From: Candidatus Aldehydirespiratoraceae bacterium | GTDB lineage: Bacteria > Actinomycetota > Acidimicrobiia > Acidimicrobiales > Aldehydirespiratoraceae | Assembly (NCBI GenBank): GCA_965249055.1 | Contig: CBDFKX010000002.1 | Coordinates: 1,481,835-1,545,834, forward strand | Length of the DNA: 64,000 nucleotides | Reading direction: 5' to 3' | Shown: positions 369 to 52,907 of the stretch, piece after piece | How the letters are laid out: each line of letters opens with the position of its first letter | Numbering within the stretch: position 1 is the first letter of the stretch | Position numbers and translations under genes: made by a program | Notes under the pieces: model-generated | The model's database searches: none | What the model saw: only the letters and a program-made list of their open reading frames with translations | What the model was told of the DNA's origin: nothing

Positions 369-2704
369 TGACCATCAACGAGAAGATTGTGGAGCAGGCG
401 CTCAGCGCCCGCACGCCACAGGAAGCCGCTGCGGTTCAGGATCTGATTGCCTCGGCCATCGGGAAGCGTTACGAGCGCCCGCTCGGCGATAGGTGGAACA
501 ACCAGGGCATTCTGACTGGATCGGGTGCAAGTTACGACCACAAGTCACTCGAAGTGGTCACGAACATGCAAGACGCGGTCCTTGAACTGGAGGCGCTCCG
601 CAACTACGGCTCCCGGGATGGCACTCCCTTCTCCACCCCTCACGAGGCCGCAGGCTCGCTCTTCGCCAGCCTCAACAGGAGGCAGAAGGCGGAGTTTACA
701 ACCGTAACGATCGACAGTGCTGGCGTCGGATCGGACAAGAAGCGCATCACTCTAACAATGCGCGACTTCGGATGTGGAATCGCCGATACCGACGTCCCCG
801 AGAGTATCTTCTGCGTCGGGGCGAAGAACAAGGACGGGGTTGACTGGCAGCAGGGCACTTTCGGCCTTGGTGGTACGACCACCTACAGGAATGCGGAGGC
901 CGTTGTGCTCGTAACCCGCCAGCACCCCGAACTCTTGGAACCTGGCCAGAGCGACCGGATCACGGTCGCAGTCGTGCAGTGGGAGAGGCAGCGCACCACA
1001 ATCAACGCGTACTACCTCGTCGTCGCCGGGTGGGACAATAGCGACCACTCTTCATTTGCCCAGGCCTTGCCTTTGTCAATCCCCGCGACCGACTTCCCTG
1101 ACTTCGAACCAGGCACGCATGTAGCGCTCATCGCCTACGACACTGAGGGGTTCGCCCGTAGGTCGGGCGATGAGAAGTCTTTCGACATGGTCCTAAACAC
1201 GCGCCTCTTCAGACCGGTCCTACCCATCGTGTACCGCAACAACATCACCCGGCCAGACCGTGACGAGGTCCTAGACGGGCTTGCACGTCGGCTCGAGGAC
1301 AATCCCAGCGAAACGGGTATTGAGGGGGAGGACACCCTCCCCTTCAATCACGACGGTGAGACGTACCAGCTTCCAATCCAGTTCCGGCTCTTTTCCAAAC
1401 CTGGTGAGAGAGGTGAACGCCGCAACTTCGTTGCTCACGGTCATGCGCTATTGATCACCTCCAACGGACAGGTTCACTCCCATTGGACTCCACAGGACTT
1501 CAGACAGCGTACGAAGCTAAACAAGCTGCATGACCGCGTCCTCGTCGAAGTCCGAAGCGATGCCCTGCCCATCGAGGTCCGCACGGAGCTCTTCACAGCT
1601 GACCGGACCCAGCTCGTTCGCATCAGCGTCGCCATGCGACTTGAGAAGGAGATCGCCGCCTTCCTAGACCAGTGGGCAGAACTGTACGACGCCAACAGGG
1701 CGCTCATCCGTGAGGCGATAACGGGGGACAACAACGACCGCCCAACTATCGCCATCGCCGAGAAGATCGCCCGCGCCTTCAAGGCGAAGGGCTTCTCCCT
1801 CGGCGGAGTCGGAACCCGAGGAGGTGGAGGTGGCACCAAACCGCCGGACCCCACCCCTCCTGAAGATCTTTACGACGATCCGACCCACCTTGAGGGGCCA
1901 GAAACGGTTGAGGCGGTCCTTGGCGAGGTCAAGGGGATCCACTTCAAGCTCAACGCCAGGGATGGCTTTATCAGCCGTCGCGTCACCCCTCGGGTTACCT
2001 GCGATCACCCCGACATAGGGCCCTCGGAGATCACCATCGGCGAACTCCGCTCAGGCCGGTTCCGAGTGGCAATCGCCGTTCCAGAGAGTGCCGATCTGGG
2101 CAACTACAAGCTTGAGATCGAGTTGGATGATTGGGCCAGGTCCTCCGGGGGACTCGGTCCTCGCTTCGAGTGGACGACCAAGATCGAGTTTGTTGATGAC
2201 ATCATACCGAGGCCCGCTCCGAAACGCGGTGGAGGTAAGAAGAAGGGCAAGTCGGGCCCCGACGAGGGAGGGCTAGTGGCTCTGATCTGGAAGAGCGATA
2301 CCGAGGATGGTGTCAACTGGAGTCCTGCCACCGTCGGAGAGATCGAGATGGTACCTGGCAAGGATCTAGCCGACAAGCGCCCTGAGTACAAGGATCTCGC
2401 CAAGATCGACACCGAGATTCCCACCATCGTCCTCAACCGTACGTTCTCGCCACTCAAGTCCTACGTCCAGGCTCGGGCCGTCAAAATCGCTGAGGAGCAC
2501 AAAGAAAGAGCGCGTGAGCGGTACGCTGTTGGCGTTGGCGTCGCCCTCTTAGTCCTCGACGACGAGGAACGCAAGGCAGCTGGGAAGGCTGGCAAGCCGA
2601 TCGACGAGGCGGCCCGAACAGCGGGAAAGGTCGCTGCCGCTCGCGCCGTACTCAGCGTGCTACCGGATACGACCGTCTCGCGAAGGAGCTTGACGATTGA
2701 CTGA
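368..2704 (+). CDS. GHKL-superfamily (MORC/MutL/Hsp90-like) ATPase with a long uncharacterised C-terminal region
   Basis: Bergerat-fold motifs occur in order: LEVVTNMQDA (ExxxNxxDA), MRDFGCGI (DxGxG), QQGTFGLGG (GxxGxG). These are followed by a Gly/Pro linker, a beta-rich segment and a Lys/Gly-rich segment. ATG at 368 (MTINEK...) is preferred over the track start at 284. Confidence 0.6.
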   Translation: MTINEKIVEQALSARTPQEAAAVQDLIASAIGKRYERPLGDRWNNQGILTGSGASYDHKSLEVVTNMQDAVLELEALRNYGSRDGTPFSTPHEAAGSLFASLNRRQKAEFTTVTIDSAGVGSDKKRITLTMRDFGCGIADTDVPESIFCVGAKNKDGVDWQQGTFGLGGTTTYRNAEAVVLVTRQHPELLEPGQSDRITVAVVQWERQRTTINAYYLVVAGWDNSDHSSFAQALPLSIPATDFPDFEPGTHVALIAYDTEGFARRSGDEKSFDMVLNTRLFRPVLPIVYRNNITRPDRDEVLDGLARRLEDNPSETGIEGEDTLPFNHDGETYQLPIQFRLFSKPGERGERRNFVAHGHALLITSNGQVHSHWTPQDFRQRTKLNKLHDRVLVEVRSDALPIEVRTELFTADRTQLVRISVAMRLEKEIAAFLDQWAELYDANRALIREAITGDNNDRPTIAIAEKIARAFKAKGFSLGGVGTRGGGGGTKPPDPTPPEDLYDDPTHLEGPETVEAVLGEVKGIHFKLNARDGFISRRVTPRVTCDHPDIGPSEITIGELRSGRFRVAIAVPESADLGNYKLEIELDDWARSSGGLGPRFEWTTKIEFVDDIIPRPAPKRGGGKKKGKSGPDEGGLVALIWKSDTEDGVNWSPATVGEIEMVPGKDLADKRPEYKDLAKIDTEIPTIVLNRTFSPLKSYVQARAVKIAEEHKERARERYAVGVGVALLVLDDEERKAAGKAGKPIDEAARTAGKVAAARAVLSVLPDTTVSRRSLTID

Positions 2705-2747
2705 AATCCCGCGGTCCGAGAGGGTTGCCGTGTCTGGTAGCAGAACG

Positions 2748-3140
2748 CTACTGACCATTTCCATCCCATTTTGGCTCTGTCTGTGGGGTTTGGGCCGTCG
2801 CCTCAGGGGGCTTTGTGAGCGACCCGTCGAGCGCGACCTCAGACAAGTCGAGGCCCACGATCCGGTCAAAGGCTTCCAGCGCCTCGCCGCAAACCCGGTC
2901 GAACACCCCGACCGCGATCCATTCGTCGCGGCGGCCCCGAAGCGTGGTGTCAGACACCTCAAAATCCATGATCGCTTCCACATCGACCCACGACGCCCCC
3001 GAGATGATCCCCCGAAAACACACCCTGTCAGCGATCCGCGGTCGGTGACAACCCAACGGATGGCCCCGATCCGGCGGCGGCAACAACCACTTAGCAGACT
3101 CCGAGGCGAATCCGTTCCGGCTTAGCCGAGATAGCAACAA
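2748..3140 (-). pseudogene. IS5-family transposase N-terminal fragment (DUF4096-like)
   Basis: ...LLPPPDRGHPLGCHRPRIADRVCFRGII..ASW.DV...RRDEWIAVGVFDRV...LDLSEVALDGSLTK matches the N-terminal half of IS5/IS427-type transposases. The DDE half is absent. Confidence 0.6.
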
Positions 3141-3390
3141 GTTGGGGTTCGAGTAGGGCGAAGCTCTGCGCCGAGGATCGCTGACGCTGCCACTCGCTGA
3201 AGCGAGGTCTGCGAGTCGGTGTCACAGCCTCGTGTCATCGTTGGGTTCTCGATTCCGGTGAGTTCCATGACGTGCCAAATGCGATTTCCCCGCAAGGCCG
3301 GGATCGAGGCAGTTGATCCAATACCAGGCTGCTCGGGTATCGCCCGACTCGCAGCTGTCGGCTACTACTCTCCGTGAAAGGATCCCAAGC

Positions 3391-4461
3391 ATGGCCTATA
3401 GAACCATCGACCTCTTTGCAGGAGCGGGCGGGCTCACCGCAGGCTTCTGGCTGGCTCGCGACAGCACAGGAGTTGAACTCTACGATCCTGTCTTCGCGGT
3501 GGAGCACGAGCCGGCGGCTGCAGCCACCTACAAGGCCAACTTCGGCATACACGTCCATGACGGGGACATCGAGTTCATGGACCCCAGGGTGTACCCCAGC
3601 GCCGACATCATCATCGGAGGGCCGCCCTGTCAGGGATTCTCTCCGCTGGGCCGTGACCGCGACCCCGACTCAAAGGCGGCACTCAACGGATTGTGGGAGC
3701 ATTTCCTTGCCGCAGTCGTGCAGGTGCGACCGCGCGCGTTCGTGATCGAGAACGTCCCCCAGTTCCAGCGCTCCGCCCAGTTCAACGAGCTATTGGACCG
3801 GATGGCTAATCACCCCTTCCTGTCGCAGTTCGGCTGTGGCTACGGGGTACTGAATGCCGCGGACTACGGGGTGCCGCAGACCAGGAGACGGGGCATCTTC
3901 ATGGCGGTCTACAAACAGTCCGTGCCTTGGCCTCCTCCGCCGACGCACGGCGACTCCCCGATGTTCGAGCAGCCGTATCGCACAGTGCGCGACGCGATCT
4001 CCGACCTTCCGGCCGAACCCACGACGGATCAACCCACCACAGCCGACGACGGCTCCCAGGATCTCCATATCCGACGCAACCCGCGGGAAACCTCTCTGCA
4101 GCGTTACCGGGCTATCCCACCGGGAGGGAACCGCTTCGATCTGCAGCGCAATCGGCCCGACATCACGCCGGCCTGCTGGCTCAACAAGCCCACGGGCACT
4201 ACTGACGTGATGGGTCGGATGTGGTGGGATAAACCCGGGCCGACGATACGGACCGAGTTCTTCAAGCCCGAGAAGGGACGTTACCTACATCCCGAACACG
4301 ACAGGCCTATCACCCACCGCGAGGCCGCTCGGCTCCAGAGCTTCCCCGACGCCTTCATCTTTGAAGGATCCAAGATCGAGATCGCTCGCCAGATCGGGAA
4401 CGCAGTCCCGCCCGTGCTTGCCCGTGAGATAGCCCTGCACCTGGCGCGCATCCTCGAATAA
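3391..4461 (+). CDS. DNA (cytosine-5)-methyltransferase, partner of the NaeI-like endonuclease
   Basis: IDLFAGAGGLTAGF (motif I), GGPPCQGFS (motif IV), ENV, QTRRR, QIGNAVPP (motif X). Convergent with the nuclease gene across a 43-nt gap. Confidence 0.9.
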   Translation: MAYRTIDLFAGAGGLTAGFWLARDSTGVELYDPVFAVEHEPAAAATYKANFGIHVHDGDIEFMDPRVYPSADIIIGGPPCQGFSPLGRDRDPDSKAALNGLWEHFLAAVVQVRPRAFVIENVPQFQRSAQFNELLDRMANHPFLSQFGCGYGVLNAADYGVPQTRRRGIFMAVYKQSVPWPPPPTHGDSPMFEQPYRTVRDAISDLPAEPTTDQPTTADDGSQDLHIRRNPRETSLQRYRAIPPGGNRFDLQRNRPDITPACWLNKPTGTTDVMGRMWWDKPGPTIRTEFFKPEKGRYLHPEHDRPITHREAARLQSFPDAFIFEGSKIEIARQIGNAVPPVLAREIALHLARILE

Positions 4462-41097: not shown

Positions 41098-42608
41098 CGC
41101 GGCATCAGGCCCGTCAACCCAACGTCTTGTGGTTGATGTGCGACGAGTTGCGGCCCGACGGCGTGGGTTGCTATGGCAACAAGTGGGGGGTTGTCGATAC
41201 ACCAAACCTTGATTCTTTGGCTGAGACCGGTACCCGTTTTGATCGTTTCTTTGTGAACTCTCCGATTTGTGTGTCGTCGCGCACGGCTTACCTGACAGGA
41301 CGTCGCCCCGCGGTTACGGGCGCGTACGGCAACGAAGCTTCGTATCGCTGGTTCCCACCCGAGACCTATACACCGCAACAACAAGAGACTCCCGAGACAT
41401 TTGTGGAGATGCTGGCTGATGCTGGCTACGTCACGCGCAACCTTGGGAAACAGCATCTCAACAGATTGCTTGAGCCATTCGAAACGTCTGACACCAGTAA
41501 CGCGGATCAGTGGCGTCTCATGCAAGCAGTCTCTCAGGTTGGAGTCGATATCCAGCGCAACGGGGTCGGCTCTGCGATCGGAGGTGTCTGGCCCACCGGT
41601 CACGAATATCCCCACGACGCGCTGGCAGATCAGGCGGGGGCGTGGTTTGCCGAGGCGCCGACGGACAAGCCGTGGTTGCTGCGTGTTTCGTTCTTGCAAC
41701 CGCACACCCCAGTTGTGGTTCCTGAACCGTTCGCGAGCCGTTTCGTTGACCAGGACTGGACCACACCCAGAGATATCCGCGCTTCGGTCAGCGCCTTTGA
41801 ACAGAACTTCGGTGACGTCACTAGGCCAAGCGATGTCGATGATGAGTGGATCAGCTTGGCGAGAGCCCGCTACTACGGGTTGACAGCATGGCTCGACCAC
41901 CAGATTGGGCAGGTCTTGTCCGCGCGCGAAGAGTCTGGACAGCGTGACTCGACCGTCGTGGTGTTCTGCTCAGACCACGGAGCCGGGTTGGGTGAAAGGG
42001 GCAACTGGGCCAAGCATGTTTTTGCTCCCCAAGTTCAGGGTTCGCCGCTGATCGTGGCGGGGGCAGGTATAGACCAGGGCGTGCTGCGCAACGACCTCTG
42101 TGAAGCAGTTGACTTTGCTCCAACAATCCTCGCGCTCGCCGGGGTGGAGCCGACGGCTGCTGTTGACGGCCGTGACCTATTCGCGTCAAACAGCGGGGGA
42201 CCGGCATTCGGCGCAATCGGATACGGGCTTCGAGAATGTTTGGCGCAACCAATGACACGTAACGGACAGTGGCCCGACGGCCGGGGTTGGCCGCAACGTT
42301 TTTGTGTGCGTGATGATCGCTACCGACTTGATCGCTCGACTCGAATGGACGGGCATGTCATTGACGCTGAGGACACGGATGCGGATATCTTCTTGGCCGA
42401 TTCGCAAACGGACCCCGATGAGATCTGCAACCTGGCCGACGATGGGGCCAATGCTGAGGTACGTGATCGGTTACTTTCGCTGCTTGAGAGCCACATTGTC
42501 AGAGCAGCCGTTCCTGAACTCGATGACTTCTACCAAGCTTGGCCGTCGATCATTGAGGAGATAATCGCTGAGAGGCTGGGACCTAAGAGTTCGGGAGAAG
42601 ACACTTGA
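41094..42608 (+). CDS. type I sulfatase 2 (variant C-V-S-S-R signature)
   Basis: LWLMCDELRPD, SPICVSSRTAYLTGR, CSDHGAGLGERG. ATGA-type overlap with the upstream gene. Confidence 0.8.
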   Translation: MTRHQARQPNVLWLMCDELRPDGVGCYGNKWGVVDTPNLDSLAETGTRFDRFFVNSPICVSSRTAYLTGRRPAVTGAYGNEASYRWFPPETYTPQQQETPETFVEMLADAGYVTRNLGKQHLNRLLEPFETSDTSNADQWRLMQAVSQVGVDIQRNGVGSAIGGVWPTGHEYPHDALADQAGAWFAEAPTDKPWLLRVSFLQPHTPVVVPEPFASRFVDQDWTTPRDIRASVSAFEQNFGDVTRPSDVDDEWISLARARYYGLTAWLDHQIGQVLSAREESGQRDSTVVVFCSDHGAGLGERGNWAKHVFAPQVQGSPLIVAGAGIDQGVLRNDLCEAVDFAPTILALAGVEPTAAVDGRDLFASNSGGPAFGAIGYGLRECLAQPMTRNGQWPDGRGWPQRFCVRDDRYRLDRSTRMDGHVIDAEDTDADIFLADSQTDPDEICNLADDGANAEVRDRLLSLLESHIVRAAVPELDDFYQAWPSIIEEIIAERLGPKSSGEDT

Positions 42609-44029
42609 TGGCCAACTCTTCGAGTCCCTCGAACTTGGTGCGACCCAACGTTTTGTTCATCATGACCGACCAATGGCGCTGGGATTGGCTCAGTTGTATG
42701 GGGACTGTCGGCCCGAGCACGCCACACGTTGACGCCCTAGCTGCGCGCGGCGTTCATATGACTCACCTGGTTACGGACTCTGCGATTTGCGCGCCAGCAC
42801 GGATTGCTCTGGCATCAGCGATGTCACCGCTACGTCTTGACTGTTTGACGAACAGTTCGGTCCTTCCGGCCGGTACCGAAACGTGGCACCACCGTTTCCG
42901 TGACAGCGGATACCGGGTTGGGTTGGTCGGCCAAACTGATCTGTCGAAACCGACCCGCAACATAGGGTTGAAGGGCAATCGCGAGCTTGTCTATGAATGG
43001 GGTTTCAGCGACGGGCTCGAGGTGGAGGGCAAGATGCATGCCGCGGCTGGTGGAGAGGGATATCCACTGGGACCGTACGGCGCGTTCCTTGCTTCACGAG
43101 GACTATTCGAGGCATTTCACCACGATTACAACGCCCGCAACATCCCCATGTACAAGGCCATGTTCAGTAACGGGCATTACGACGACCCGGACTGGTATCG
43201 GGATTCGGTGCTTCCCGCGGATGCATTTGCAGACACCTGGATCGGTGAACGCGCGGTGGACTGGCTTGCTACGGCGGGAGACGGCCCGTGGAATCTGATG
43301 GTGAGTTTCGCTGGACCCCATGATCCCTTCGATCCACCGACCGTCTGGGCCGACATGTTCCGACATGCCGACATGGCCGATCCGGTTCTCAACGCCAACG
43401 ACAACAAACCGCTTTACCTCACGACTTCGGCTTGGGGATTTGATGCTGCCCACATAGCGGAGATTCGGCGTCAATACAGCGCCTCGTGTGCCGCCATTGA
43501 TCACGAGGTTGGCCGCATGGTGGCCGTGCTTGAGGACCGCGGGCTTGTTGCTGAGACGATTGTGGTCTTCACCTCAGATCACGGGGAGATGCTCGGCGAT
43601 CATCACCGGTTCCAAAAGCATGTCGCGTATGAGCCCTCGGTGCGGGTTCCTTTTGTGGCTGCCGGTCCTGGTATTGCCCAAGGAAGCAGTGAAGCGCTGG
43701 CGCAGCTCAGCGATGTGGGGCCGACCCTTTGTGAACTCGCTGGTCTTGAACCCTGGCGCGGTGTTGATGGAATGTCGTTTGCCTCGACTCTGACCTCTCC
43801 CACGGTTCCGCATCGTGATGCTGTCGTCTGTGTTGAACCGCATTACCGCATGGTTCGAACCCAAGACCGCAAATTCATCTGGAACCGCAACGACATCGAG
43901 GAGGTCTACGATCTCGGCGGCGACCCCGGTGAGTGTGAAAATCTGCGTGGGACTGCGCCCGAACACGAACTACTCGACCTCCTGATTGAGCACACCGGAC
44001 CCTTGCCCGAAGGCCCTAGTCTGTTGTGA
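42605..44029 (+). CDS. type I sulfatase 3
   Basis: LFIMTDQWRWD, SAICAPARIAL, TSDHGEMLGDHH. Overlaps the upstream gene. Confidence 0.8.
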   Translation: MMANSSSPSNLVRPNVLFIMTDQWRWDWLSCMGTVGPSTPHVDALAARGVHMTHLVTDSAICAPARIALASAMSPLRLDCLTNSSVLPAGTETWHHRFRDSGYRVGLVGQTDLSKPTRNIGLKGNRELVYEWGFSDGLEVEGKMHAAAGGEGYPLGPYGAFLASRGLFEAFHHDYNARNIPMYKAMFSNGHYDDPDWYRDSVLPADAFADTWIGERAVDWLATAGDGPWNLMVSFAGPHDPFDPPTVWADMFRHADMADPVLNANDNKPLYLTTSAWGFDAAHIAEIRRQYSASCAAIDHEVGRMVAVLEDRGLVAETIVVFTSDHGEMLGDHHRFQKHVAYEPSVRVPFVAAGPGIAQGSSEALAQLSDVGPTLCELAGLEPWRGVDGMSFASTLTSPTVPHRDAVVCVEPHYRMVRTQDRKFIWNRNDIEEVYDLGGDPGECENLRGTAPEHELLDLLIEHTGPLPEGPSLL

Positions 44030-46912: not shown

Positions 46913-46989
46913 CGGAGCGGCCAAGACTCGATGTCTCCGAACCTCTAGCATGAGTGCCGGCTGGGACGTACCAAAGACCGGGAGGTCGC

Positions 46990-48009
46990 ATGAACCCTCG
47001 AAGAGACATGGTCATCGGTGCCATTGCCTGCATCGTCATCTTCTTCTTCTTTGTCAGCATCGATTTGTACGAGACAGTCTCGGACTTCACGAGTGAACAC
47101 GAGGGCTGGCAACTCGTTGAGATCCTGGCGGCTGTGCCTACGCTCGCCCTGGTCACCTCCTGGTTCGCCGTGCGGCGCTGGCTGGAAGTAGCCCACCTCA
47201 ACGACAGGCTGGCTCATACCGTCGGACAACTCAAAGAAGCGATTAATGAACGCCAGGCCATGGAGGAACAGATCGGCGAGGCTTACAAAATGGCGGCGAT
47301 GGGCGCGCTATCTGGAGGGCTCACCCGGGAACTCAACAATGTGATGCAGCCGATCGTGACCTTGGCGCAACTGGGAGTCGACCAAATCGACCAAAGCGAG
47401 GCGCAACGGGAGAATATGGGTCGCATACTCTTGGCGGCGGAGCGTGGTTGCAAGATTCTCGAGAGTTCATTGGCTGACCCTGTTGGCGGATTCGGTGACG
47501 CAGAAGAGATCATCCCGTCGCAGGGGTTGTCGAGTGTGATTGCCCAGGTAGGAAAGTCGGTCGGAAACGATGTGACGATTGTGTCCCGCTTCAGCGACGA
47601 GGGTGGCGTGATCTCAGTGAACCGTGAAGAATTCGACTCGGTGTTTACGAGTTTGCTGACCAACGCGGCACAGGCCATGAAGCGTGGGGGCGAGATCACG
47701 GTGGGACTCTCGACCCGCACACTTGACGAGGCCCAGGCGAGTGTGCAGGGAGTTTCAGCTGGCAGCTACTTCAGTGTCACTGTGGCCGACCAAGGCATTG
47801 GCATGACCGATGATGTGCGAACCCAAGTTTTTGATCCGTTCTTCACAACCAAATCGGCCGACGGATGCGCCGGTCTGGGTCTCACCATCGCCTATGAACA
47901 GGTTCACGGATGGTCGGGCAGGATCACTGCGGAATCGTCTTATGGTGAGGGTTCGACGTTCGAAGTTCTCATCCCCCACCACCATGCAGACGAAGCCCCA
48001 GGAGCCTGA
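46990..48009 (+). CDS. membrane histidine-kinase-like protein with Arg in place of the H-box histidine
   Basis: Two N-terminal TM segments. DHp-like ...MGALSGGLTRELNNVMQPI (expected AHELNNP). Intact N, G1 (DQGIGM), F (FDPFFTTK) and G2 (GLGLTIA) boxes. Confidence 0.7.
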   Translation: MNPRRDMVIGAIACIVIFFFFVSIDLYETVSDFTSEHEGWQLVEILAAVPTLALVTSWFAVRRWLEVAHLNDRLAHTVGQLKEAINERQAMEEQIGEAYKMAAMGALSGGLTRELNNVMQPIVTLAQLGVDQIDQSEAQRENMGRILLAAERGCKILESSLADPVGGFGDAEEIIPSQGLSSVIAQVGKSVGNDVTIVSRFSDEGGVISVNREEFDSVFTSLLTNAAQAMKRGGEITVGLSTRTLDEAQASVQGVSAGSYFSVTVADQGIGMTDDVRTQVFDPFFTTKSADGCAGLGLTIAYEQVHGWSGRITAESSYGEGSTFEVLIPHHHADEAPGA

Positions 48010-48012
48010 ATA

Positions 48013-48384
48013 ATGGCGACCGTGTTGGTGGTTGACGACGACCCGGGGGTGCGCTTTGCGCTGACGCGGCTTTTGGATGCTTGTGGTGACCATGAGGTAA
48101 TCGAAGCCGACAGCTGCGAAGCAGCGCTGGAGCTAATGGCTTCCCGCAAGCCGGACCTGGTTTTGACAGAGTCCGTGATGCCGACAATGACCGCGATCGA
48201 GTACATAAAGGCGTTGCGCTGGGCCTGCCCTCGCGCCGGGATCGTGGCTTTGTCTGCGGGTGGTATGCACCAAAGCCCAGAGTTCGCTACCGGCCTTGCC
48301 AGCACCGCAGGAGCCGACGAAGTCCTGCGCAAACCTGTCAAAAACGAACCCCTGCTAGCCGCCGTCAACAAAGTCCTCCGCTGA
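48013..48384 (+). CDS. stand-alone receiver domain with Glu at the phospho-acceptor position
   Basis: VLVVDDDPG..., PDLVLTESVMP (expected DLVLLDxxMP), VALSAG, LRKPV. Confidence 0.75.
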   Translation: MATVLVVDDDPGVRFALTRLLDACGDHEVIEADSCEAALELMASRKPDLVLTESVMPTMTAIEYIKALRWACPRAGIVALSAGGMHQSPEFATGLASTAGADEVLRKPVKNEPLLAAVNKVLR

Positions 48385-48731
48385 GCCCCCGGATTGCCTT
48401 CCCGCAAACCGGCTTGCTCCTAACGGAAGGTGCTCCAAGAGGCGAGGTAAGATAGTGCGGATGGACGGATCGACTGGATCTGCTGCTGATGACGCTGCGC
48501 TTCAGAAGCTCCTTGAAGCTTGCCAACTGTACGAGGACTATTTGGCCGTCAGGTCTGTCGCCGAGTCGGCGACGCTTCGTGATCTGGCGACCAAGGCCGT
48601 GTCTGAGGACAGCTACCTAGACCACGCCTCGACTCGCCGACATGAAATATCGGTCCAGAAAGACTCATATGTCCAAGCGCTGAGGTCCGCCACCGCGGAC
48701 ACCGACGGTCTGGTTTCAGGAGATGTGCGAA

Positions 48732-49115
48732 ATGGCTCTTGCTGAGATAGCAGTGGTTGGCTCCCTAGGCTCCACCTCAGAGCCAGCATTGCTAGCTGCG
48801 GTGCACAAAGCACTGGTCACCGGACTCAGTGTGCCAGAAGACGACCCGACCGTCCTTCTCTCTGACGCGTCGACCAAGAACGCATTATTACCAGGGAAGC
48901 TCGCAAGGATGGTTCTTGTCAGGGTAACGATGTTTGTGGGTCGTAGCCCGGCGACGCTTTCCAAGTTGCACGCAATTATCGCTACCGAACTGAACGCTGC
49001 TGGCATCGAATCAGACGAGATCAGAACGGTCTTCATCGAAACCACAGTGTCCAACTGGGGGATAGCTGGACGGCCGCAGAACGTTGCGAGCGTGGGCTTT
49101 CAGATTCACAGATGA
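48732..49115 (+). CDS. tautomerase-superfamily-like protein (Tautomerase_2 type)
   Basis: ...VRVTMFVGRSPATLSKLHAIIATEL...DEIRTVFIETTVSNWG. The N-terminus is MA..., not the catalytic MP.... Confidence 0.35.
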   Translation: MALAEIAVVGSLGSTSEPALLAAVHKALVTGLSVPEDDPTVLLSDASTKNALLPGKLARMVLVRVTMFVGRSPATLSKLHAIIATELNAAGIESDEIRTVFIETTVSNWGIAGRPQNVASVGFQIHR

Positions 49116-49511: not shown

Positions 49512-50636
49512 TCACAGGTGCGCCCGCGTCCAGAGGTCTAGGTCGGTGGTGAGTTGTAGGGCGTGGAGGGCTTGTTGGGCGTTTTCGAGTAGTGCGGCGC
49601 CGCGTTTGGCGAAGAACTCGTCGGAGTCGGCGACAGCATCGCCGCCGTAGCGTTGGTGTTCGGTGTCTGAGGCACGTTCGAGCATCAGAGGGGTGAGCCA
49701 GTCGTATTTGACCGCTGAGGCGGCCATGGCCAGTTCGACAATTCTTGGATCGCCGTGCCAACCGGCATCACCGAGGCCACCAACGTAAGCATCGAGTGTC
49801 GCTTGGCGAAGCTGGGGTAGCTGATCCGGCTCAACGAAGAAGTCGAACGCTGCGTCTGGAACGAGGTTTCCTATGTCCTCGCCGAGCGCTCCGTCACCGA
49901 CGAAGGCCCAATCCAGCAGAACAAAGCCATCATCAGTCTCGATCAGGTTCTTGGTCCAGAAGTCAAGGTGGCACAGGGTGCGTGGAAGCGACTCGAGCAC
50001 TGAGTAGAGCCGATGACGCTGTGCGTGCAGTTCGGTGGCGGCCGGCCTCAAAGCCGGGGGGAAGTTGTCGGCAACAACGGGTTGATCCCACGCGCGATCG
50101 TCGTCGAGCAACTCCCAGACAACCGGTTTTTCGCTGCTGTAGTCGCGCAAGAAGCCTTGAGACAGCCATTCAACGTCTGGTAGCGCTCCGCTGAGAGCGA
50201 GTTTGCCTTGAGCTGCTCCCAAACGCCGTGCTGCTTCGGCATAGGTGTCAATGTCCCAGTTCTCGGCTGGTGTGCCGTCAACGAATTCCATGGCAACAAC
50301 CGTGTCTTCGTCGGTGATATCGAGACCCACGCAGACCGGTGCCCGTACACCTTCTTCAGCGAAGCACTGGACGACACCGGATTGGTAGGCGAGAGGCTCA
50401 CGAAGCCAGTAATTCCACCGATCAGTGGATTCGCAGTCCTGTGACCAGTGCCGCGTGAACGCCGTGGTACCAACCTCGCGGTGGCGGGCCAGTCGCTTCA
50501 CGACCAGACGGCGATCACCCTTCGTCAATTCCCAGATATCGGCTGTAAGCCAGCGATTGTGCTGGGGCTCCACGACATCCCACGCGTCCGCCTCCAACCC
50601 AACCCGAATCAGGGTTTCGTTCAGCCGCGGATCCAC
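49512..50636 (-). CDS. phosphotransferase (APH/choline-kinase-like) family protein
   Basis: LCHLDFWTKNLI (Brenner motif HxDxxxxN), LLDWAFVGDGALGEDIG. Confidence 0.7.
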   Translation of the reverse strand: MDPRLNETLIRVGLEADAWDVVEPQHNRWLTADIWELTKGDRRLVVKRLARHREVGTTAFTRHWSQDCESTDRWNYWLREPLAYQSGVVQCFAEEGVRAPVCVGLDITDEDTVVAMEFVDGTPAENWDIDTYAEAARRLGAAQGKLALSGALPDVEWLSQGFLRDYSSEKPVVWELLDDDRAWDQPVVADNFPPALRPAATELHAQRHRLYSVLESLPRTLCHLDFWTKNLIETDDGFVLLDWAFVGDGALGEDIGNLVPDAAFDFFVEPDQLPQLRQATLDAYVGGLGDAGWHGDPRIVELAMAASAVKYDWLTPLMLERASDTEHQRYGGDAVADSDEFFAKRGAALLENAQQALHALQLTTDLDLWTRAHL

Positions 50637-50695
50637 CCTTTAACCCTAGAAGCACCTGCAATCGCAGAGAGCGGATAGCGACGCGGGCGGGATGG

Positions 50696-51358
50696 CTAGG
50701 GGCTAGGTGTGGAGTTGGAGTCGGGAGGATGGGTGACTTTAAGGGACAAGAAGCGGAGTGGGAGCTCGATCAGCGCGGTGGGACCGTGTGTCACCTCACC
50801 CCGAAATTGCATGGAGTCGCCTGCGGTGAGCACGTACCGCTTGGTGCCGTAGCCGTACTCGACGCAGCCCTCAAGGATGTATATGAACTCCACGCCACCG
50901 TGTTGGAACAGCGGGAAAACCTCGTTGGGTTCGGTGATTGTGACGTACAGCGATTCGATCTCACGGGTTGGACCTCGCAGCGATCCGAGATCGTGATACA
51001 CCCTGCCGGGTCCAGCACCTTCGTGAATGATCTCCATCCCTTGTCCAGCGGGGACGATCACTGCATCGCGTTCTTCGTCCAGCCCTCGAAAAAAGGCTGT
51101 AAAGGGAACCTCGGCCGCGTCAGCCAAGCTGATGAGTGTGCTGAAACTTGGTGAGGTCTGCCCATGCTCGACTTTGGAGAGCATCCCGATTGATAGTCCC
51201 GCGGCGTCTGCGAATTGCTCCATGGTCAAGCCCATGCCCACCCGGAGTTCGCGCACTCGCCGACCAACGCTCTCGCACACCTCATCGGTTGTCAGTCGGC
51301 CTGTTCGGCTGTCGCTGACGGTCCGCGGCGCTTCTGGGTCGCTTCCTTCAGGTGGCAT
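50696..51358 (-). CDS. XRE-family HTH regulator with a C-terminal cupin domain
   Basis: VGRRVRELRVGMGLTMEQFADAAGLSIGMLSKVEHG, followed by a cupin region (FIYILEGCVEY...GDSMQF). Lies 17 nt downstream of the gmaS-like gene. Confidence 0.75.
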   Translation of the reverse strand: MPPEGSDPEAPRTVSDSRTGRLTTDEVCESVGRRVRELRVGMGLTMEQFADAAGLSIGMLSKVEHGQTSPSFSTLISLADAAEVPFTAFFRGLDEERDAVIVPAGQGMEIIHEGAGPGRVYHDLGSLRGPTREIESLYVTITEPNEVFPLFQHGGVEFIYILEGCVEYGYGTKRYVLTAGDSMQFRGEVTHGPTALIELPLRFLSLKVTHPPDSNSTPSP

Positions 51359-51375
51359 GTTGGTGGCGTCGATTC

Positions 51376-52731
51376 TCAGAACAGAGTGAGGTACTGGTCG
51401 ATCTCAGATTGGGTGACCTGGTGATGGTGGGCCATGAACTCAGCTTTTTTGGTCTTTACAAAATAGTCCCGATAGGAGCCGTCGGGGGTCATCCCGAGTC
51501 CTTTCTCAAGGACATCGCAGGTGGCCAGGTTTTCTGCTGCATGCAGCAGAGTAGGCGGCAACGTGACGATCCCTCGGTCTGCGATCTCTTCAGCGGAGAG
51601 CTTGAACAAGTTGTCCTCATTCGGTTGACCGGGGTCGACTCCTCGGTCAATACCGTCGAGTCCGCAAGCAAGCATCGCCGCGAACATCAGGTATGGGTTC
51701 GCTGCTCCATCGGCGAGACGGAGTTCCAACCGGTCTGGCTCGGGTATGCGGATCATCTGGGTGCGGTTGTTGCCCCCATACGCCGCGTAAGCCGGTGCCC
51801 ATGTCGCCCCCGATGTTGGGGCACCCACCCCCATTCGCTTGTAGGAGTTGACGATGGGGCAGAGGATTGCGACAAGCGACGGGGCATGTTCGATCAACCC
51901 GGCCGCGAACTGATAGGCCAAGTCGCTCAATCCCAAGCCTTTGGAGTCGTCGTCGCCTCCAACGAAGAGCGGTTCGTTGTCGAGCGACCAAAGGCTTGAA
52001 TGAGCATGGAGCCCGTTGCCGGTCTTGTCGGCGAAGGGTTTGGGCATGAACGTCGCATAGCGGCCATCGCGGGTGGCCATTGTGTGGATCATCAACCGGA
52101 ACAGCACCAGCCGATCAGCGGTTGTGAGGGCATCGGCATACTGCCAGTTCTGTTCGAACTGGCCGTTGGCGTCCTCATGGTCGTTGGCGTAGTTGCCCCA
52201 TCCCATGGCGTTGAGATTGCGTGAGACTTCGGTGAGGTGGGGCAGCATGCGGGTGAGGCCCTTGGCGTCATAACAGGGTTGTTCGTCCACGTCACGCTCG
52301 TCTGCGACCACGATTGACCCGTCGGGGTTCCTGTTGACCAGGGAATACTCGGCTTCGACACCCGCGTTGAACACCAAACCACGCGACGTGAGATCGTCGA
52401 GCGCTTGGCGCAGGATCACGCGTGGTGCATAGGGCCAGAGTTCGCCTTCAACGGTTGGGTCGCATTGCAAGGCGGCGACATTGGGTTGCCATGGCAACTG
52501 GGTGTAGGAAGCGGGATCGGGAATGGCCAAGATGTCGGGGCTAGACGGGTCCTGGCCAATGGGACCCGCGGCAAAACCTGCGAATCCGGCACCTTCGTTC
52601 ATTACGGTCTCGAGCGCTTCAACCGGAACTAGCTTGGCGCACGGTTTGCCGTGCATCTCCACAAACATTGCGTAGATGAACTCGACACCATCGTTTTCGA
52701 CCCGTGCTTTGATTTCTTCGTATGCGCCCAT
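51376..52731 (-). CDS. gmaS: glutamine-synthetase-family ligase, gamma-glutamylmethylamide synthetase-like
   Basis: GS beta-grasp and catalytic motifs (FMPKPF.DKTGNGLHAHSSLW, NRTQMIRIP). GAAGGAG lies upstream of ATG 52731. Divergent from the mgsABC-like genes. The symbol is assigned from context only. Confidence 0.65.
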   Translation of the reverse strand: MGAYEEIKARVENDGVEFIYAMFVEMHGKPCAKLVPVEALETVMNEGAGFAGFAAGPIGQDPSSPDILAIPDPASYTQLPWQPNVAALQCDPTVEGELWPYAPRVILRQALDDLTSRGLVFNAGVEAEYSLVNRNPDGSIVVADERDVDEQPCYDAKGLTRMLPHLTEVSRNLNAMGWGNYANDHEDANGQFEQNWQYADALTTADRLVLFRLMIHTMATRDGRYATFMPKPFADKTGNGLHAHSSLWSLDNEPLFVGGDDDSKGLGLSDLAYQFAAGLIEHAPSLVAILCPIVNSYKRMGVGAPTSGATWAPAYAAYGGNNRTQMIRIPEPDRLELRLADGAANPYLMFAAMLACGLDGIDRGVDPGQPNEDNLFKLSAEEIADRGIVTLPPTLLHAAENLATCDVLEKGLGMTPDGSYRDYFVKTKKAEFMAHHHQVTQSEIDQYLTLF

Positions 52732-52907
52732 CGACAACTCCTTCGTCTGAACTGAACCTGTGCGCGATTCACCTGAGGAAACCTCTACTGTAGGTGAAAT
52801 ATCTTCACCGTTGTCAAGAGATGCGGCTAAGGTTTGCGAACCTGCCCGAGGCAGACCGCCGAGCTTAAACCGCCCGAAGAAAATTCTTGGAGGAGTCGAA
52901 CTCAAGC

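Follow-up and report, generated by a model that had tools for sequence, protein, structure and literature searches.

A natural, conserved pair of histidine-less kinase homolog and aspartate-less receiver as a candidate for two-component signalling without phosphotransfer

Pseudo-kinases and pseudo-receivers are common: the phospho-accepting histidine is missing from about 0.9% of HisKA domains and the aspartate from about 2% of receivers (PMC12632262). A pseudo-histidine kinase, sensu Collins and Childers, is a histidine-kinase homolog that lacks at least one canonical function or residue and is kept under selection (PMC12632262). Among aspartate-less receivers, glutamate is the commonest substitution, found in 26% of them (PMC4395418, PMC12632262), and only 29% keep the second acidic residue (PMC4395418). 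Of 20 characterised bacterial atypical regulators, all but CmrT and FrzS are orphans, and the switching of pseudo-kinases and pseudo-receivers has been called "a mystery" (PMC12632262). The same paper describes no pair in which both partners have lost their acceptors, and its supplement holds no table of the residues that replace His; our literature search for a kinase-receiver pair without both acceptor residues found none. Here we describe such a pair in a stretch of 64,000 nucleotides (nt) from a Candidatus Aldehydirespiratoraceae bacterium (contig CBDFKX010000002.1, positions 1,481,835 to 1,545,834), referred to below as the window, whose own numbering is used for all coordinates. The pair consists of a kinase-like gene (46990..48009) and a stand-alone receiver gene (48013..48384), both on the + strand.

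The kinase-like gene encodes 339 amino acids (aa) with two transmembrane (TM) helices, a signalling helix, a dimerization and histidine phosphotransfer (DHp) domain and a HATPase_c domain. At the phospho-His column it carries Arg113 (codon CGG, 47326..47328) in the motif GGLT-R-ELNNVMQP. Since Pfam HisKA gave no match for the window kinase at E values up to 1, this column assignment rests on the pairwise alignments to PDB chains and on the family alignments. In the phmmer search against PDB chains, residues 96-332 aligned to CckA (4.9e-17) and likewise to LvrB, ZraS and FixL, and R113 fell without a gap on the phospho-His of CckA (GGVA-H-DFNN), LvrB and ZraS. Because GGLT-R-ELNN and GGVA-H-DFNN align gap-free, codon 113 sits exactly on the phospho-His column. 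Family relatives of the window kinase carry PF00512, and an NCBIfam VirA-like match of the kinase itself (1e-43) lies below its cut-off. None of the other His residues (37, 69, 76, 306, 330-332) is conserved within the Arg clade.

The rest of the kinase is conserved. DHp helix 1 with the H-box, the predicted receiver-docking face in the PDB alignments and the complex model, spans residues 96-132 (47275..47385), and the catalytic and ATP-binding (CA) domain, residues 215-330 (47632..47979), matches HATPase_c (PF02518) in Pfam with an E value of 1e-16. A codon check placed the N-box N225 at 47662-47664, the G1 box D267-G271 at 47788-47802 and the G2 box G295-L298 at 47872-47883, so that the nucleotide-binding residues read N225, D267xG269xG271, F281/F284 and G295-L-G297-L. 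Just before G2 the kinase has DGCA versus GEGT in many relatives, a stretch that also varies among His-bearing relatives. The hydropathy scan identified TM1 at residues 7-24 (47008..47061), conserved across the family, and TM2 at residues 42-61 (47113..47172), leading into an invariant WFAxRRW motif; the loop between them has about 17-20 residues, and a continuous helical linker runs from TM2 to the H-box. The protein thus shows the DHp and CA homology and the N, G1, F and G2 boxes of a HisKA-type histidine kinase and lacks the H-box His. With the His absent and selection retained, it is at the sequence level a pseudo-histidine kinase. Its ATG is preceded at a distance of 4 nt by a Shine-Dalgarno-like GGGAGG (46980..46985); an alternative upstream start exists (GTG at 46954), and the ATG at 46990 is preferred because the orthologs too begin with MNPRRD.

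The receiver gene begins 3 nt after the kinase (stop TGA at 48007-48009, ATG at 48013). Its ribosome-binding site AGGAG (48000..48004) lies within the 3' end of the kinase gene, 8 nt before the ATG, a predicted translational coupling of receiver to kinase. The 123-aa product matches Pfam Response_reg (PF00072) over the whole domain (residues 4-119, profile positions 1-111, E 1.5e-17), and many alignments to PDB chains placed Glu53 (codon GAG, 48169..48171) on the phospho-Asp of CheY, KdpE and other receivers. The active site is otherwise complete, with the acidic pocket D8-D9-D10 (48034..48042), Ser81 at the conserved T/S position (48253..48255) and Lys107 at the conserved K position in RKP (48331..48333). 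No alternative conserved acceptor Asp was found in the alignments, and the protein falls under the definition of an aspartate-less receiver or pseudo-receiver (PMC4395418, PMC12632262). The preliminary description of this locus had read an Arg in the H-box and a Glu in place of the phospho-Asp at these same codons, membrane anchors, a DHp-like helix and complete ATP-binding boxes in the kinase, and a receiver 3 nt downstream with acidic pocket, Ser and Lys. All of this was borne out, and both profile and pairwise alignments leave R113 and E53 on the acceptor columns with no other conserved His or Asp.

Directly after Ser81 the receiver carries a family-specific A/G-G-G-M-H-Q loop. Its G-G-M-H-Q part (48256-48273, residues 82-87) is invariant in the Glu- and Asp-bearing clades alike and includes His86, itself invariant, beside the active site, and more distant relatives (Woeseiaceae) have no such loop. 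The label of a FAT GUY receiver was considered and rejected. In FAT GUY receivers (SdrG/Sma0114 type) the motif PFxFATG[G/Y] spans beta4 and includes the conserved Thr. The window's SPEFATG stands past the S81-AGGMHQ loop, in the helix-4 region, and is one residue short; relatives read PELATT, PGMATS or PGLAES at this position, and the likeness is coincidental.

A word-indexed search of 5.8 billion proteins returned about 35 clusters that match the pair's kinase in length and architecture, with identities from 93% down to 40%. An exhaustive search without profiles, run over 1.84 billion representatives, contributed more same-architecture clusters at 30-41% identity. The family module, two TM helices, DHp and CA followed by a stand-alone receiver, occurs in several phyla, and the H-box block is ungapped and nearly invariant in the alignment of the roughly 35 clusters. 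In this protein-cluster alignment all kinases at least 58% identical to the window kinase have Arg (24/24 clusters at 58-93% identity) and those at 52% or below have His. With the locus survey below included, relatives at 52% or less have His and Asp apart from one Rhodobacterales pair at 49% identity, which has Arg and Glu (R+E). The orthologous receivers in the protein database have Glu in 22 of 22 clusters. The clusters at 30-41% identity from the exhaustive search all have His except for one more member of a separate His-less lineage described below.

We then retrieved 44 family loci with their flanks (numbered L) from species-representative genomes and metagenomes, extracted the kinase open reading frame (ORF) and the ORF immediately downstream of each, and read the acceptor residues. 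The window and 17 Acidimicrobiia loci (Acidimicrobiales, Acidimicrobiaceae and Ca. Aldehydirespiratoraceae; 67-95% identity) were R+E, and so was one locus in a Rhodobacterales metagenome-assembled genome (MAG), L027, at 49% identity. Another 22 loci, from Latescibacterota, Gemmatimonadaceae, Gamma- and Alphaproteobacteria and metagenome contigs, carried the canonical His and Asp (H+D). Mixed pairs, R+D or H+E, were seen in none of the window, the 18 further R+E and the 22 H+D loci, and the more distant kinase-receiver loci from the same scans included 62 H+D. Two deep Arg-clade kinases (P0024, P0025) also have a 124-aa Response_reg gene 3 nt downstream; these receivers stand outside the pairing count, as the word search did not recover their sequences. 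The two genes are translationally coupled in all 19 R/E loci, window included. Because the same R113 and E53 substitutions recur in 18 further independently assembled loci as well as in the clusters, they are not due to chance or sequencing error. The Arg codons of the R/E clade are CGG or CGA and the Glu codons GAG or GAA; the relatives use CAC or CAT for His and GAC or GAT for Asp. In a search of 400 genomes of the class, true orthologs were found only in the window's own genus. The preliminary description had named orthologs with canonical His and Asp as a sign of recent local decay; the survey found the opposite, with Arg in every ortholog at 58% identity or more and Glu in the adjoining receivers.

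Both genes are under purifying selection, and every module is constrained. Within the R/E clade the pairwise ratio of nonsynonymous to synonymous substitution rates (dN/dS) lay at 0.11-0.18 in the kinase and, in most receiver comparisons, at 0.1-0.2, and the canonical gammaproteobacterial kinases gave a similar 0.10-0.23. By module, the median kinase dN/dS was 0.086 for the sensor and TM part, 0.105 for linker plus DHp and 0.107 for CA, and the only relaxed stretch (0.27) is inter-domain. Across the R/E subtree, whose branches sum to 2.3 substitutions per site, R and E stayed invariant while their codons varied synonymously. Consistent differences between the Arg-bearing and His-bearing kinases are confined to eight columns; N225, D267, G269, G271, F281, F284, G295, G297, E114 (H+1) and N116/N117 are invariant across the family. 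In the Glu-bearing receivers D9, D10, S81 and K107 are invariant, D8 is Asp in 15 and Glu in 1, and the changes that distinguish this clade cluster round the site (D+1 from V/L to A/S/T, D+2 from N to V/S, T+1 from G to A).

Some of the His-bearing relatives are unusual in their own way. In a Latescibacterota/Gemmatimonadaceae subgroup (L032:5012-5410 and L043/L044/L045:5009-5407) the receivers keep the phospho-Asp and have E-H instead of D-D as acidic pair, and dN/dS is unusually high, at 0.3-0.6. The open kinase frame of the same loci reaches about 560 codons further upstream; in L044 that region forms a separate kinase-like ORF (2313-4004), so that these loci may hold a second kinase gene or a fusion. 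In another Latescibacterota locus (L028:4177-5379), the receiver was found only inside a long overlapping ORF, as a partial match to residues 43-122, which could reflect a frameshift, the use of another start or faulty assembly.

To determine how often the R/E state arose, trees were built with the acceptor columns removed. In the kinase tree the Arg-bearing kinases formed one clade, with L027 as sister to the Acidimicrobiia group (95/78). The receiver tree, from a short alignment, did not resolve the placement of L027, and the concatenated tree again gave one R/E clade (support 96/76, not starred). L027 and the Acidimicrobiia receivers also have in common a one-residue insertion at receiver position 26. 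One R/E origin followed by transfer between phyla is, from these sequences, the most parsimonious account. Two independent R/E origins, which would be strong evidence of co-evolution, are unsupported, as the R/E loci are monophyletic in the best trees; the approximately unbiased (AU) test likewise did not reject them (p-AU 0.35). What is informative here is the absence of intermediates and the later evolution rather than the co-occurrence itself.

The module was observed in Actinomycetota, Latescibacterota, Gemmatimonadota and Alpha- and Gammaproteobacteria (L012-L049, L088-L093), and its gene tree crosses phylum boundaries, with Gemmatimonadaceae nested among Latescibacterota and the Rhodobacterales copy sister to Acidimicrobiia. 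This disagreement between gene tree and phyla suggests that the module spread horizontally, apparently between bacteria associated with sponges; the habitat is taken from isolate names. The MAG isolate codes of many H+D loci are presumably those of sponge-microbiome studies. The family Aldehydirespiratoraceae (UBA11606) contains a sponge-symbiont lineage (PMC11706023). Because the two-gene module apparently passes between phyla of bacteria associated with sponges, what it senses may be peculiar to that habitat.

We next modelled a complex of two copies of kinase residues 85-339 with two receivers. The model reached an ipSAE (interaction prediction score from aligned errors) of 0.67, compared with 0.00 for the best of three controls; in the calibration, the mark was passed by 51 of 78 solved complexes and by 2 of 108 mismatched pairs. 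Contact agreement among three runs was at least 76%, and the predicted local distance difference test score (pLDDT) of the partner at least 82. The predicted interface joins DHp residues 112-132, R113 included, and 142-154 to receiver helix 1, residue 55, residues 82-84 and 106-111. The modelled interface is the canonical, textbook docking of receiver on kinase, and since kinase-receiver complexes have already been solved, the pass may reflect likeness to these and not binding by this copy.

The docking face is also conserved in sequence, its core (N116, N117, Q120, P121, T124, L125, Q127) being invariant in the R/E clade. Rhodospirillales and Boseongicola MAGs contain a further His-less lineage, independent of the first and without any adjacent receiver (L046:3818-4999, L047:1228-2343, L048:3333-4514, L049:35-1306; gyrA is next in L046). 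In these orphans G, D or S fills the His column and RR or GR replaces NN, and the N, G1 and G2 boxes are intact. They are altered at N116, N117, Q120, V123, T124, Q127 and L128, residues that are invariant in the R/E clade. Such a contrast between R/E kinases and receiver-less kinases is as expected if the R/E kinases still bind receivers. The suggestion in the preliminary description that ATP binding or protein interaction may be retained is thus consistent with the ATP-binding boxes and the invariant docking face.

Taken together, the pair is probably, though by no great margin, a functional, co-translated sensor and receiver that signal by binding rather than by phosphotransfer. This agrees with the phosphorylation-independent signalling that the preliminary description had proposed from the loss in both partners. 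It would descend from a canonical module of HisKA-type kinase and CheY-like receiver that gave up His-to-Asp phosphotransfer. The membrane sensor, with its two TM helices and short loop, would still take in a signal and relay it through the continuous helix to the DHp, on whose canonical face the receiver would still dock. A Glu in place of the Asp can in part activate receivers or mimic aspartyl phosphate (PMC12632262, PMC4395418), and Glu53 in its intact acidic, Ser and Lys pocket may act as a partial phospho-Asp mimic. Arg113 at the mouth of this pocket may substitute for the protonated His, and the complex would then resemble a permanent product complex of kinase plus phosphorylated receiver (the post-transfer, phosphatase-state complex). 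Depending on the signal, the receiver would be captured, released or allosterically shaped through the DHp conformation, and this would set the output with no phosphoryl group involved; the state of the nucleotide-bound CA domain may contribute to it.

Several points weigh against signalling by binding. We infer rather than observe the absence of phosphotransfer, a contact of Arg with Glu or with the acidic pocket, and a binding-based output. The complex model resolved no direct R113-E53 contact, E53 lying outside the confidently touching residues, and Glu is effective as a phosphomimic only sometimes (PMC4395418). No conserved neighbour or output partner beyond the pair was found across phyla in the family loci compared. 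Since the trees favour a single origin, the R+E co-variation counts as about one event and not as repeated independent co-evolution, so neither the order nor the coupling of the two changes is statistically demonstrable; moreover, the tree with L027 outside the clade was only 0.95 log-likelihood units worse and was not rejected (p-AU 0.35). Finally, the ATP-site residues are fully kept, with a CA dN/dS of 0.107, which is more than a pure scaffold needs and therefore leaves room for retained chemistry.

The best-surviving alternative, which we nevertheless regard as unlikely, is a constitutive, signal-blind module in which Glu53 locks the receiver on or off and the kinase is only a membrane anchor or chaperone or has an unrelated ATP-binding role. 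It draws on the facts that Glu is the commonest Asp-site substitution and often tied to constitutive activity (PMC12632262, PMC4395418), and that sponge symbionts, which live in a stable habitat, are part of the host lineage (PMC11706023), a setting in which a fixed pathway state would be plausible. However, the sensor and TM part is the most constrained of the kinase. Arg113 is invariant, whereas an unneeded position would drift; the docking face is invariant too, and translational coupling was kept in all 19 R/E loci. Nor is the pair likely to serve as decoy for some canonical paralog within its family, because the window's own genome (3.59 Mb, 95% complete, about nine receiver domains) has no close paralog of the pair, the next kinase match being 29% identical and limited to the CA domain.

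Less likely still, in our judgement, is that phosphochemistry was kept with non-canonical acceptors, either from CA to Arg113 (as phosphoramidate, like phospho-His) and on to Glu53 (as acyl phosphate, like phospho-Asp), or by a GHKL-type Ser/Thr kinase activity on the receiver, for example on T52, S54 or H86. All ATP-binding residues and the H+1 Glu, which acts as general base in HisKA kinases, are invariant, and the CA domain is under the constraint given above. Arg and Glu are the chemically nearest N-nucleophile and carboxylate alternatives. The receiver also keeps D9, D10, S81 and K107, its full set of residues for metal and phosphoryl binding, which most aspartate-less receivers do not (PMC4395418), and phosphorylated Arg and Glu are known from other biological systems (PMC9112008, PMC4395418). 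Against this, the orphan His-less kinases L046-L049 also keep the N, G1 and G2 residues, so ATP-site retention in this family does not by itself imply phosphotransfer, and the R/E pair of Rhodobacterales does not conserve T52 and S54. We know of no histidine kinase that phosphorylates Arg; the guanidinium group is a poor nucleophile, and known Arg kinases such as McsB have a different fold. The specific Arg-to-Glu relay, with phospho-Arg113 formed by the CA domain and then a gamma-glutamyl phosphate on Glu53, would be compatible with the sequence, as the ATP-binding, general-base and phosphoryl-coordinating residues are all invariant. Nothing positively supports it, and we hold it to be very improbable; if true, it would be a previously unseen chemistry of two-component signalling.

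That one or both genes are decaying, non-functional remnants, as the loss of both acceptor residues and the missing Pfam HisKA match might suggest, has next to no probability, because the purifying selection (dN/dS 0.1-0.2), together with the invariant ATP boxes and docking face, excludes decay, and because 19 loci have intact frames, neither R nor E changed along 2.3 substitutions per site while their codons turned over synonymously, and the other motifs are conserved; the preliminary description had likewise judged random decay less likely, and clade-wide fixation agrees with it.

The surroundings of the pair were examined as well. Upstream in the window lie a sulfatase gene (42605-44029) and genes for an enoyl-CoA hydratase, a methyltransferase and a 2-oxoglutarate (2OG)-Fe(II) oxygenase; downstream lie a tautomerase-like gene and, on the minus strand (49512-52905), genes for an APH-family phosphotransferase, an XRE-cupin regulator and a glutamine-synthetase-like protein, the last with a 70-residue N-terminal extension. 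No link of the sulfatase, APH, XRE-cupin or glutamine-synthetase-like neighbours to the pair was found, synteny being limited to genus and family. Directly 3' of the receiver, a 96-codon ORF (48455-48745, + strand) without a Pfam match is present in six close relatives only (L012-L014, L016, L022, L024) and overlaps the start of the tautomerase-like ORF (48723-49115). A promoter and terminator scan gave nothing above shuffled expectation.

Compared with known systems, the nearest are the canonical H+D pairs of the same family (e.g. L026, L032, L036, L040). They have the same kinase of about 335-340 aa, a receiver of about 123-133 aa located 0-10 nt downstream, the same H-box context GGL-x-[HR]-E-[LF]-N-N-V-[LM]-Q-P and the same GGMHQ loop, at 41-52% (kinase) and 41-56% (receiver) identity to the window proteins. 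They differ in their His and Asp acceptors, where the window clade has Arg and Glu, the changes at D+1, D+2 and T+1 and the insertion at receiver position 26. With both acceptors exchanged, the sensor, docking face, ATP site and pocket conserved, and the H+D sister pairs as controls, the family offers a matched natural experiment. More distant kin are CckA-, VirA- and NtrB-like HisKA kinases with CheY-like receivers.

Among described proteins, DivL of Caulobacter is alike in being a His-less homolog (Tyr at the site) that binds a single-domain receiver, DivK, via its DHp and CA domains and does not phosphorylate it (PMC4211667, PMC5361649). However, DivK has retained its Asp, and its phosphorylation, which other kinases carry out, is the state that DivL reads, and the two genes are not a co-substituted operonic pair, whereas the window receiver is without any phosphorylatable acceptor Asp. 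ChxR, the plant pseudo-response regulators (PRRs) and fungal Rim15 resemble the window receiver in their Response_reg fold with an Asp-to-Glu change (PMC4395418, PMC12632262). Aspartate-less receivers are usually joined to output domains and have often lost further residues of the pocket, and the characterised bacterial ones are nearly all orphans; the window receiver stands alone, has the DD, S and K residues intact and is translationally coupled to a His-less kinase homolog.

Engineered DesK H188Q and EnvZ H243Q signal without phosphorylation, which was termed "allosteric coupling activation" (PMC12033271), and so provide a kinase without acceptor His that signals to its regulator through a protein interface. 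These are laboratory mutants with Gln and not Arg, and their regulators keep the Asp; the state in the window is natural, fixed and paired with a receiver change. In CmrRST of Clostridioides difficile a pseudo-receiver is likewise encoded in a sensor-kinase operon (PMC12548384, PMC12632262), but CmrS keeps its His, the canonical regulator CmrR is present and only one of the three proteins is atypical. The pair described here is a candidate for two-component signalling without phosphotransfer, and it makes testable whether signalling can proceed purely by binding without His and Asp, whether Arg and Glu mimic the post-transfer complex and what role the kept ATP site has. Each half alone is already known from the systems above; what is new is a natural, conserved, operonic pair of pseudo-kinase and pseudo-receiver.

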